From: Escherichia coli | Lineage (GTDB): Bacteria > Pseudomonadota > Gammaproteobacteria > Enterobacterales > Enterobacteriaceae | Direction: 5' to 3' (one strand) | NCBI RefSeq assembly: GCF_003018235.1 | Contig: NZ_CP027437.1 | DNA length: 64,000 bases | In this document: one piece after another, positions 3,628 through 5,775 of the stretch | Layout: the number at the start of each line of letters is the position of its first letter | Position numbering within the stretch: position 1 is the stretch's first letter | The notes under the pieces: generated by a model | The model's input: the letters and a program-made list of their open reading frames with translations, nothing else | Told to the model about the DNA's origin: nothing | The model's database searches: none | Position numbers and translations under genes: made by a program

Positions 3628-3656
3628 GACGGCCTCTGCGGAGGCCGTCACTCTTT
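3628..3656. terminator. Hairpin between convergent pntB and tqsA, likely bidirectional rho-independent terminator
   Basis: gacggcctc-tgc-gaggccgtc perfect 9-bp stem immediately after pntB stop, followed by T-rich tract. Confidence 0.6.
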
Positions 3657-4682
3657 ATTGAGATCGCTTAACAGAACGGCGATGCTTTGACCTCCCGCTG
3701 TTTGTTCAAGCGCAATTTTGACAATAATTGTCAACGGCACGGAAAGCAGCATACCCACCGGTCCTAACAACCATCCCCAAAAAATCAACGACAAAAATAC
3801 CACCAATGTCGAAAGCCCCAGCCCACGTCCCATGATGCGCGGCTCCAGAATATTGCCGAAGACCAGATTAATCAGCAGATATCCCGCCAGCACCAGCAAC
3901 GCTTCGTAGAAGCCATTAAACACCAGTACCTGAGCGATAGGGGGGATTGCCGCGAGAACTGAACCAATATTCGGGATGTAATTAAGCGCAAAGGCCAGCA
4001 ATCCCCAGACAAAAGCGAAGCGAACATCGAGTGCGGCGAGCATCGCCCAGGCGACCAGGCCGGTGATGATGCTGATGGCTGTTTTCAGCACCAGATAATG
4101 AGACACACTGTCAATCGCACGCTGAATCGCCGCCATCCCTTCAACCGGACGCGCCATCATTTGCTGAAATTTTCCGGGCAATTGTGGCACTTCGAGCAAC
4201 ATAAACAGCACCGTCAGCAGCAATAAAAATATTGATGACATGGCATTAGATAACTGCGTCAATAAGTTGGTGAGCAACGTCATCGCCGCGTTCGGATCAA
4301 TGTAATGCGCCAGTTGGTCAACTGAGACATCAATCCCTACGCGTTGCAACAACGGTTCAATCGCTTGCAGCGGCGTCATAATAGAGTTGCGATATTGCGG
4401 TAACGTCCGCGTCAACTCGTTGAGCGCGGAACCCAGATAAGCTAATAGCAACACCATCGCCATCACGATGATGGTCATCAAAATCGACACTGCCAGTACA
4501 CGCGGCACACGCCAGCGGACCATGTGTTGCACCAGCGGGTTAAGAATAACAGCAATAAATAATGCGAGAATAAACGGCACGATGATCTCGGCGGCAAAAC
4601 GGATACCGCAGAGAATAATGACCAGCATTCCCAACATAATGACGATTTTTAGGCCATTGAGCGTGATGATCGGCTTTGCCAT
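3648..4682 (-). CDS. tqsA: AI-2 exporter / AI-2E family transporter TqsA (YdgG)
   Basis: 344-aa polytopic membrane protein; size and synteny match ydgG/tqsA. Confidence 0.85.
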
Positions 4683-5093
4683 GCTTGTCCCCGTTTTTTC
4701 TTCCTTTGCTAATAATAATGTCTTTTTCGCTCCGTCATCATAACGAAAATCAAACCGCTCAGGTAAAGAAGTGAAAATATTTTGAGTTAATTCTTAAGCT
4801 ATGATACAAATCAGGCGTGTTCAACTACCGAGGACAATTATCATCCGCGATGACGAGAAGCAACACTGCGGATAATTGTAATATTATGGACAATTTGTTC
4901 AGGACGTTATTTTCTACATTTACCCATCTTCGTACCTCATCCACTATCTTGCTCGTAGGTGAGCAACACTGGCGCAACGCGCTTTAGTCCTTACTTCTGC
5001 CTAAGCTTGCGCCATGCGCGGAGCTTGACCACTTTACTTTGGTTTCGCTGAATTAAGCGAAAATTAAAATAATTCTCTTGCAGGAGAAGGACA

Positions 5094-5459
5094 ATGTATA
5101 TTTATTGGATTTTATTAGGTCTGGCTATTGCTACAGAAATTACCGGTACGCTGTCCATGAAATGGGCGAGCGTCAGTGAGGGAAATGGCGGCTTTATTTT
5201 AATGCTGGTGATGATTTCTCTGTCGTATATATTTCTCTCTTTCGCCGTTAAAAAGATCGCCTTAGGCGTGGCTTATGCGCTGTGGGAAGGTATCGGTATT
5301 TTATTTATTACCTTGTTTAGCGTTTTGTTATTCGACGAAAGTTTATCGCTGATGAAAATTGCCGGGTTAACCACCCTGGTGGCCGGGATTGTGTTGATCA
5401 AATCAGGTACCCGTAAAGCGCGTAAACCTGAACTGGAGGTGAACCATGGCGCAGTTTGA
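5094..5459 (+). CDS. mdtJ: Spermidine export protein MdtJ (SMR family)
   Basis: 121-aa four-helix SMR-type protein, [35 protein letters not shown]; overlaps mdtI start. Confidence 0.9.
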
Positions 5460-5775
5460 ATGGGTTCACGCCGCCTGGCTGGCATTGGCAATCGTGCTGG
5501 AAATCGTTGCTAACGTTTTTTTGAAATTTTCTGACGGCTTTCGTCGCAAAATATTTGGCGTGCTCTCTCTGGCGGCGGTGCTGGCTGCCTTTAGTGCGCT
5601 TTCTCAGGCCGTTAAAGGGATCGACTTGTCTGTCGCTTATGCATTGTGGGGCGGATTTGGTATTGCCGCCACGTTAGCCGCAGGTTGGATCTTGTTTGGT
5701 CAACGGTTAAATCGTAAAGGCTGGATTGGCCTGGTCTTGCTGTTGGCTGGAATGATCATGGTGAAACTTGCCTGA
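5446..5775 (+). CDS. mdtI: Spermidine export protein MdtI (SMR family)
   Basis: 109-aa SMR-type protein translationally coupled to mdtJ (14-bp overlap), RBS GGAGG. Confidence 0.9.

Follow-up and report, generated by a model that had tools for sequence, protein, structure and literature searches.

What is the inverted repeat that lies between tqsA and the spermidine exporter genes mdtJ and mdtI in Escherichia coli: a site in the DNA, a structure in the mRNA, or a product of chance? The divergently oriented tqsA and mdtJ genes are 411 bp apart (positions 4683-5093 of the window, the whole 64,000-nucleotide stretch of DNA that was analyzed). A preliminary description, which correctly put this distance at about 410 bp, had noted an imperfect palindrome at about 4840-4890 and had suggested that it was either a regulator-binding site or an RNA structure. 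The repeat is present, although its actual position is 4834-4879. We found that it is very probably an RNA hairpin of an already known leader and is held there by purifying selection. The best overall explanation, to which we give a probability of roughly 55%, is that this conserved stem-loop serves translation initiation at mdtU, the upstream open reading frame (uORF) of the mdtUJI operon.

The repeat lies in the leader of a known spermidine-responsive operon

The intergenic region differs from that of strain K-12 at 5 of its 411 positions, all of them downstream of 4965 and none in the hairpin, and the published results on the K-12 leader therefore transfer to the window. The mdtJI transcription start site (TSS) was mapped by primer extension in Shigella/E. 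coli to a G lying 278 nt upstream of the mdtJ ATG (PMC4636849), and dRNA-seq data, as cited in PMC7815308, put it at that same G. This TSS lies upstream of the repeat and not downstream of it, which places the repeat inside the 5' UTR, one of the two locations (5' UTR or promoter) that the preliminary description had thought probable. The sequence upstream of the TSS is probably the mdtUJI promoter, with a −35 element TTGAGT (4782-4787) and an extended −10 element TGaTACAAA (4802-4810), separated by 17 bp when the spacer is counted to TACAAA. The TG and the TA.AA of the −10 element are kept across genera in the leader alignment. Leuzzi et al. reported −10 and −35 boxes associated with the mdtJI TSS (PMC4636849), and a simple consensus promoter scan made no call for the mdtUJI promoter. 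The coordinates of all features are collected in Table 1.

Adams et al. (2021, eLife; PMC7815308) described in this leader a 34-codon uORF, ydgV, which they renamed mdtU and whose stop codon lies 106 nt upstream of mdtJ. The window has the same uORF, with its ATG at 4886 and its TAG at 4985-4987, again 106 nt upstream of mdtJ; in K-12 it is annotated as b4777, of 102 nt. Those authors showed that mdtU is robustly translated from its AUG and that a start-codon mutation abolishes this translation. They also mapped a Rho-dependent 3' end, reflecting premature termination, 6 nt into mdtJ (about 5099 in the window). Spermidine at pH 9 gives read-through, inducing mdtJ at the level of both mRNA and protein, and the induction is lost when the mdtU start codon is mutated (PMC7815308). 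Sensing was tentatively placed by Adams et al. in the MdtU C terminus, by analogy with SpeFL, and they mention a predicted pairing of the mdtU RNA with the mdtJ ribosome-binding site (RBS) (PMC7815308). A 2025 review still lists the mdtJI mechanism as undetermined, and overproduction of the CspD protein is known to raise mdtUJI expression. The preliminary description was thus right to suspect a long 5' UTR with polyamine-responsive control of mdtJI, which is published, and it missed the main feature of that leader, the translated uORF.

Set against this background, the leader and its polyamine control are known, and what is new is the stem-loop as a sub-element. No account of a hairpin at +18 to +63 of the mRNA turned up in our literature searches. 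The repeat lies immediately before the mdtU AUG, on its 5' side, as an accessory to the leader and not as its known control element.

Table 1. Features of the tqsA-mdtJI locus (window coordinates)
Feature	Coordinates	Strand	Basis
tqsA	3648-4682	−	Annotation
Probable mdtUJI promoter	4782-4810	+	Sequence inference and published TSS position
mdtUJI TSS, G (mdtJ ATG = +278)	4817	+	Two independent published mappings, placed by near-identity with K-12
Single-stranded, conserved 5' end GUGUUYAACUACY	4817-4829	+	Alignment; conservation 0.86-0.90
SD-like GAGG adjoining the 5' side of the stem	4830-4833	+	Alignment, anti-SD pairing energies
Inverted repeat forming an RNA stem-loop, +18 to +63 of the mRNA	4834-4879	+	Folding, conservation, covariation
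A/U-rich spacer AAUAUU between stem and mdtU AUG, 6 nt	4880-4885	+	5-8 nt in other genera, mostly 6
uORF mdtU (ydgV), 33 aa plus UAG, MDNLFRTLFSTFTHLRTSSTILLVGEQHWRNAL	4886-4987	+	In-frame part of the 4817-4987 ORF
MdtU C-terminal codons GEQHWRNAL plus UAG, conserved; candidate arrest peptide	4958-4987	+	Codon variation, conservation peak
Pyrimidine-rich anti-SD-like segment UCCUUACUUCUGCC just after the mdtU stop	4988-5001	+	Predicted folds
Hairpin UUCGCU/AGCGAA, best-covarying leader helix	5044-5061	+	RNAalifold and repeat search
mdtJ ribosome-binding region, conservation peak	5073-5093	+	RNAalifold
mdtJ	5094-5459	+	RefSeq annotation, near-identical E. coli genomes and K-12
mdtI, after mdtJ	5446-5775	+	RefSeq annotation, near-identical E. 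coli genomes and K-12
mdtJ and mdtI, spermidine/multidrug SMR exporter	5094-5775	+	Annotation

The repeat is predicted to fold into a two-part stem with a bulge

A repeat search returned perfect 9-nt arms, ACAATTATC (4834-4842) and GATAATTGT (4871-4879), separated by a gap of 28 nt, together with a second, overlapping 9-nt pair at 4840-4848/4868-4876. Written out as acaattatcatccgc ... gcggataattgt, the repeat has 15 nt in its left arm and 12 nt in its right arm, the left arm carrying three additional bases. RNA folding resolves these arms into 13 bp in two helices: a lower stem of 7 bp (4834-4840/4873-4879) and an upper stem of 6 bp (4844-4849/4867-4872). Between the two lies a 3-nt bulge on the 5' side (UCA, 4841-4843), and the upper stem closes a 17-nt loop (4850-4866) containing an invariant AAGCAA. 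The 3' end of the hairpin is 6 nt from the mdtU AUG.

The predicted energy of the hairpin is −13.0 kcal/mol, with a z score of −2.8 in a 55-nt folding window but only −0.4 in a 74-nt one. It is both the minimum free energy (MFE) and the centroid structure, in a local fold as well as in a fold of the 294-nt leader, and its pairs have probabilities of 0.9-1.0 whatever transcript length was folded. Even so, when the 411-bp region was shuffled 5000 times with its dinucleotides preserved, 329 of the shuffles (6.6%) contained a perfect 9-bp inverted repeat with a gap of 3-40 nt. The repeat by itself is therefore within chance, and it is conservation that raises it above chance.

Several other roles for the RNA were tried and set aside. 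The hairpin was rejected as an intrinsic terminator, since the terminator scan made no calls and no terminator-like site, with a GC-rich stem followed by a U tract, was present in 4600-5200; the stem is followed by AAUAUUAUGG. A scan of 4400-5400 against Rfam 15 at a permissive E value returned only U3 and VqmR, at E values of 0.41 and 7.4, far below the gathering scores. An antisense RNA was also considered: the minus strand folds about equally well, but the G-U pairs of the E. coli type occur on the plus strand only, and we found no evidence of antisense transcription at the hairpin. A direct repeat, AGCAACACTG (at 4859 and 4962), was examined as an alternative-pairing element and taken as chance, since K-12 has a G at 4966 and the repeat is not conserved.

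The hairpin lies in the best-conserved part of the leader

We looked for the leader across related genomes in a scan that took one genome per species. It yielded 80 mdtJ loci, from Escherichia, Citrobacter, Enterobacter, Lelliottia, Kluyvera, Leclercia, Salmonella, Kosakonia, Pluralibacter, Buttiauxella, Cedecea, Phytobacter, Silvania, Erwinia and others, and eight more came from Pantoea, Pseudescherichia and relatives. A first search with the MdtJ protein reached close relatives only; a second, from an Erwinia protein and eight contigs, added the Pantoea/Pseudescherichia clade. The comparative set stops short of the more distant Enterobacterales Yersinia, Serratia and Klebsiella. Every readable mdtJ locus in it has mdtU, and homologues of the uORF precede mdtJ in about 80 loci.

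The best-conserved block of the leader is 4817-4905, with identities to the window of 0.81-0.94 per 10-nt block across about 24 lineages; by the same measure, identity falls to 0.4-0.5 in the middle of mdtU and in the mdtU-mdtJ spacer. It is thus the untranslated 70 nt before mdtU, and not the uORF, that forms the most strongly conserved part of the leader. Within the hairpin the loop AGAAGCAACA is the most conserved part, at an identity of 0.94. The same picture holds within the species: of 5,422 E. coli genomes, 5,041 (93%) share an identical 81-nt segment 4817-4897, as against 14 of 5,399 for an 81-nt segment just after mdtU. With a covariance model the hairpin element was found in every locus, at 180-330 nt before mdtJ, even where a gene other than tqsA is the upstream neighbor. 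The element stays with mdtJI when the upstream neighbor changes and therefore belongs to mdtUJI.

Most of the comparative evidence on pairing agrees with an RNA structure. The two-part stem with its 5' bulge is the MFE structure in almost all of 46 unique homologous sequences, and RNAalifold, run on an independent alignment of whole leaders made with MAFFT, recovered both stems. The upper stem carries compensatory changes, C-G to U-A in Leclercia and Silvania and G-C to A-U in the Erwinia/Pantoea/Pseudescherichia clade (one change common to the clade), and its pairs are never broken in the comparative set. Pairing was found in 92.5% of alignment cells, versus 45% or less when the partners were slid. 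The bulge, of 3-4 nt, sits at the same position in all genera, and its sequence varies (UCA, UUC, ACU or UUA). Double changes affect four pairs in only six cells, a number of pairs that 0 of 500 shuffles reached among these very similar sequences. The covariation score of the same sequences was matched by 57 of 500 shuffles and so does not rise above them, and the structure tested was itself derived from the sequences used in the test.

Covariation is thin because the sequence barely varies, and conservation alone is unable to separate an RNA structure from a protein-binding sequence. The structure appears compatible with the data and preserved, on positive evidence that is modest. Taken together with the conservation, it leads us to regard the repeat with considerable confidence as an RNA hairpin under purifying selection. 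Between the two options in the preliminary description, the RNA structure is thus better supported than the regulator-binding site, on account of the compensatory changes, the two-part stem with its shifting bulge and the spacing of the arms, 37 bp apart.

The MdtU C terminus appears to be selected as a peptide

A second conserved part of the leader lies at the end of mdtU. As in the description by Adams et al., MdtU is conserved across gammaproteobacterial genera, and most strongly so at its C terminus. The C-terminal amino acids are kept in about 75 unique ORFs, drawn from more than 16 genera, while the codons for G, E, Q, R, A and L vary synonymously; the residues W, R and L never change, and the UAG stop is present in 75 of 75 unique ORFs. 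This pattern points to selection at the level of the peptide and agrees with the proposal of an arrest peptide by Adams et al. In the consensus fold, a hairpin can form at 4967-4987 as well.

The hairpin may bridge a distant Shine-Dalgarno sequence to the mdtU start codon

mdtU has no canonical Shine-Dalgarno (SD) sequence at a normal distance from its AUG. The only GGA in the linear upstream sequence is at −16, inside the upper stem, and the stretch from −17 to −4 gives an anti-SD pairing of −3.3 kcal/mol or weaker. Directly before the stem is the SD-like GAGG, replaced by GGAG in Leclercia, Silvania, Phytobacter and "Ca. Pantoea soli." For GAGG or GGAG the energy of anti-SD pairing is −5.6 to −6.6 kcal/mol in nearly all of 68 unique sequences. 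In the linear sequence GAGG lies 52 nt from the mdtU AUG, and once the hairpin is folded the distance is about 6 nt, within a functional range of 5-11 nt.

We therefore propose, from the arrangement of these motifs, that the stem-loop is part of the mdtU translation-initiation region. The folded hairpin would shorten the SD-AUG distance from 52 to about 6 nt and so create a split ribosome-binding site, and mdtU, with no normal SD, appears to depend on a GAGG bridged in this way. Efficient loading of ribosomes on mdtU would then allow the downstream events, in which the ribosome would occupy GEQHWRNAL-UAG or arrest there, the mdtJ SD would become exposed and Rho would be excluded. A ribosome halted at the mdtU stop would, in this chain, mask the pyrimidine segment at 4988-5001, which could free the mdtJ initiation region and hinder Rho. 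That the hairpin acts by SD-AUG bridging in particular, as the phage T4 examples discussed below would suggest, we hold only tentatively and with slightly less than even confidence.

Two predictions stand against bridging. In the full-length leader, GAGG is predicted to pair with a downstream CUUC just after the mdtU stop, with an unpaired probability of 0.02, and the UG of the mdtU AUG lies inside a small conserved hairpin, UGGAC/GUUCA. Moreover, pure shortening of the spacer leaves the loop, the most conserved part, unexplained, and the loop's conservation suggests a specific contact. The hairpin that would be bridged, at 46 nt, is also much larger than its counterparts in phage T4.

Further pairings are predicted in the rest of the leader. 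The partner of the segment at 4988-5001 is the mdtJ SD region in the single-sequence MFE structure and GAGG at 4830-4833 in the RNAalifold consensus. RNAalifold further pairs 4819-4823, in the conserved 5' end, with 5002-5006, a pairing in which compensatory changes are absent. At the mdtJ start, UUCUC (5073-5077) pairs with GAGAA (5084-5088) in five invariant pairs, covering the mdtJ SD AGGAGAAGGA. The helix at 5044-5061 has pairs with 8, 4, 2, 1 and 1 both-side changes among 15 sequences.

Other explanations of the repeat

We think it unlikely that the bulged hairpin is itself the spermidine sensor, tuning the presentation of the SD and AUG and hence mdtU initiation, be it by the mechanism of the class 1 mRNAs of the polyamine modulon or in a riboswitch-like form. 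In class 1 mRNAs the SD is obscure or distant, and stimulation proceeds through a structural change in a bulged-out region of a 5'-UTR hairpin (PMC7177335). That published mechanism would fit a leader with a distant SD and a bulge whose position is kept in all genera while its sequence varies, and the same idea is cited for oppA by Adams et al. (PMC7815308). The near-invariant loop would suggest specific recognition, and the dependence of induction on mdtU translation fits control at initiation as well as it fits arrest. On the other hand, excess spermidine inhibits rather than stimulates several mRNAs with a distant SD (PMC7177335), a match in Rfam is absent, and the selection on the MdtU C-terminal peptide, together with the invariant UAG, points to a nascent-peptide arrest sensor. 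If such a sensor did exist here, it would be a natural polyamine-responsive RNA switch coupled to a uORF and controlling Rho termination. Very unlikely, in our estimation, is a docking site for a CsrA-type protein or an sRNA, made up of the loop and the flanking GGA motifs (GAGGACAAU, GCGGAUAA and AUGGACAAU), which would repress mdtU translation and so promote Rho termination. Of only eight copies of GGACAAU on both strands of the whole 64-kb window, three do lie on the plus strand in a span of 264 nt, one at 4832, one at the mdtU start (4888) and one at the mdtJ start (5089); the hairpin would bring the first two of these together, and the loop is invariant. Yet two of the three copies are explained by their start-codon or SD context, and the motif count in the window as a whole is at chance level. 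The GGA motifs also lie outside hairpin loops, unlike preferred CsrA sites, and none of the papers found that mention both mdtJ and CsrA describes such an interaction.

At the level of DNA, the repeat could be an operator for AcrR, H-NS or a polyamine-responsive regulator that binds the arms downstream of the TSS and blocks transcription, which we consider quite unlikely. mdtUJI is up 2- to 3-fold in an acrR mutant, and AcrR weakly shifts a 286-bp fragment that includes the repeat (4757-5042 in the window), although this shift is partial and was seen at 1 µM protein (PMC9769551). The 3' arm and the mdtU AUG (4867-4890) do coincide with a sequence that ranks among the best matches to the 24-bp acrAB operator, but it has 10 mismatches, and 57 sites with 10 or fewer mismatches in the 64-kb window put it near background; an operator of the AcrR (TetR-family) type, a 24-bp palindrome like TACATACATTTGTGAATGTATGTA, was rejected on this ground. 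A PuuR operator, suggested by the GGACAAT repeats, was likewise rejected: the K-12 puuA-puuD intergenic region has boxes of the AAAATATAATGACCA type and no GGACAAT, and the best resemblance in the leader is 11/15, in AT-rich sequence. H-NS binds the region and represses the mdtJI operon, and reporter activity rises when sequence downstream of the TSS is deleted (PMC4636849), an effect explained by removal of the Rho attenuator. High conservation of arms and loop would be expected of a protein site too, but arms 37 bp apart from center to center are wrong for a dimeric operator, and compensatory transitions on both arms, with a drifting bulge and pairing kept, fit an RNA rather than recognition by a protein. 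The last explanation, that the palindrome arose by chance or is a coding part of a longer, 56-aa YdgV beginning at GTG 4817, is effectively refuted already by the conservation and the start-codon data. The shuffling frequency given above would allow chance, and PGAP annotates a 56-aa "protein YdgV" over the repeat, as in many RefSeq records. The repeat is, however, conserved far above the true coding part of mdtU. The 56-aa frame was rejected because its GTG is the TSS itself, which leaves no room for initiation signals, and because Enterobacter, Leclercia and Buttiauxella lack the in-frame ATG found upstream at 4850, the frame in Buttiauxella being closed by a stop. The published start-codon mutant, moreover, abolishes translation, and the 34-codon length of the ORF puts the mutated ATG at 4886 (PMC7815308).

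The leader as a whole is a textbook-style case of uORF-coupled, Rho-dependent attenuation that keeps spermidine nontoxic. Should the conserved stem-loop merely support constitutive initiation at mdtU, it would be a small refinement of known biology. The comparative data supply specific mutations that could separate sensing at initiation from arrest by the nascent peptide.

Comparison with known systems

The closest system is the K-12 mdtU-mdtJI leader itself (PMC7815308), with which the window shares the locus, the order tqsA/mdtU/mdtJ/mdtI, the length and position of the uORF and the TSS context. Nothing differs in kind, and the published description lacks the stem-loop and the arrangement of GAGG, hairpin and AUG.

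For that arrangement the best parallel is in phage T4 genes 38 and 25, where experiments have shown that a hairpin cuts an SD-AUG spacing of 22 nt to 5 nt and one of 27 nt to 11 nt (PMC3014915). The two cases share with the mdtU leader a distant SD-like motif, a stable intervening hairpin, a functional spacing once folded (6 nt here) and phylogenetic conservation. They differ in size, with structures of about 16-17 nt versus 46 nt and a large conserved loop here, and in setting, since here the gene served by the predicted arrangement would be a regulatory uORF of a cellular operon.

The class 1 mRNAs of the polyamine modulon (oppA, rmf, fis and others; Igarashi/Kashiwagi group) resemble mdtU in combining a distant SD and a hairpin with a conserved bulge in a gene tied to spermidine. 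They are growth genes stimulated at physiological polyamine levels, whereas mdtUJI responds to excess spermidine and its output is transcription antitermination through the uORF. The speFL-speF leader, as cited in PMC7815308, is comparable in the mdtU uORF and not in the inverted repeat: it too is a leader uORF of polyamine metabolism with Rho-dependent attenuation and a conserved C-terminal peptide at the stop. As described there, it differs from mdtU in that the peptides are unrelated and the ligand is ornithine rather than spermidine, and stalling at mdtU is a candidate mechanism only.

Sequence constraint within the mdtUJI leader

The 5' segment of the leader, from the mapped transcription start through the beginning of mdtU (4817–4897), was identical in 93% of 5,422 E. 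coli genomes, whereas the equal-length segment following mdtU (4988–5068) was identical in 0.3% and had fallen to ≤95% identity in over a thousand genomes. Constraint differs sharply inside a single UTR. The gene upstream of the leader was not tqsA in the added loci from Pantoea, Pseudescherichia and relatives (L084–L091), being, for example, a PfkB kinase or tautomerase gene. Despite this different neighbor, these loci kept the leader element, at an unchanged distance from mdtJ.

Three copies of the motif GGACAAT fall in a 264-nt stretch of the plus strand, at the hairpin base (4832), the mdtU start codon (4888) and the mdtJ start codon (5089); the whole 64-kb window holds eight copies on both strands.

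Predicted RNA pairings around mdtU and mdtJ

Pairings predicted in the mdtUJI leader RNA
Feature	Position	Location	Basis
Long-range helix	4819–4833 with 4994–5006	Encloses the entire mdtU ORF	RNAalifold prediction
Hairpin UGGAC/GUUCA	4887–4901	UG of the mdtU AUG and codons 2 to 5	High predicted probability
Hairpin UUCGCU/AGCGAA	5044–5061	Between mdtU and mdtJ	Covariation
UUCUC/GAGAA	5073–5077 with 5084–5088	Inside the mdtJ Shine-Dalgarno region	

The clearest covariation in the whole leader was found in the mdtU-mdtJ spacer hairpin, where both sides had changed at one pair in up to 8 of the 15 aligned sequences. This hairpin may serve as a pause structure or have a function linked to Rho. The UUCUC/GAGAA pairing was invariant in all 15 aligned genera and is predicted to form a local helix sequestering the mdtJ Shine-Dalgarno sequence.

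The long-range helix would pair GUUCA at the 5' end and the SD-like GAGG with CUUC...UAAGC just 3' of the mdtU stop codon. Since its changes were one-sided only (G-C/G-U), the alignment argues weakly for a helix closing the mdtU ORF. The small hairpin at the mdtU start codon was invariant, and RNA and coding constraint are therefore inseparable there.

The MdtU peptide

Across the window and the homologous loci L002–L081, the last nine mdtU codons (GEQHWRNAL; 4958–4987 with the stop codon) varied synonymously while the amino acids were kept, and the stop codon was UAG in all 75 unique ORFs. These patterns indicate, at the sequence level, that selection acts on the C-terminal peptide of MdtU and perhaps on RF1-specific termination at the UAG.

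Many RefSeq (PGAP) E. coli records instead carry a 56-amino-acid "protein YdgV" (4817–4987), whose GTG start at 4817 coincides with the mapped transcription start. This longer form is probably an annotation artifact. The product with experimental support is the 33-amino-acid MdtU translated from the ATG at 4886, as is also given in the K-12 record.
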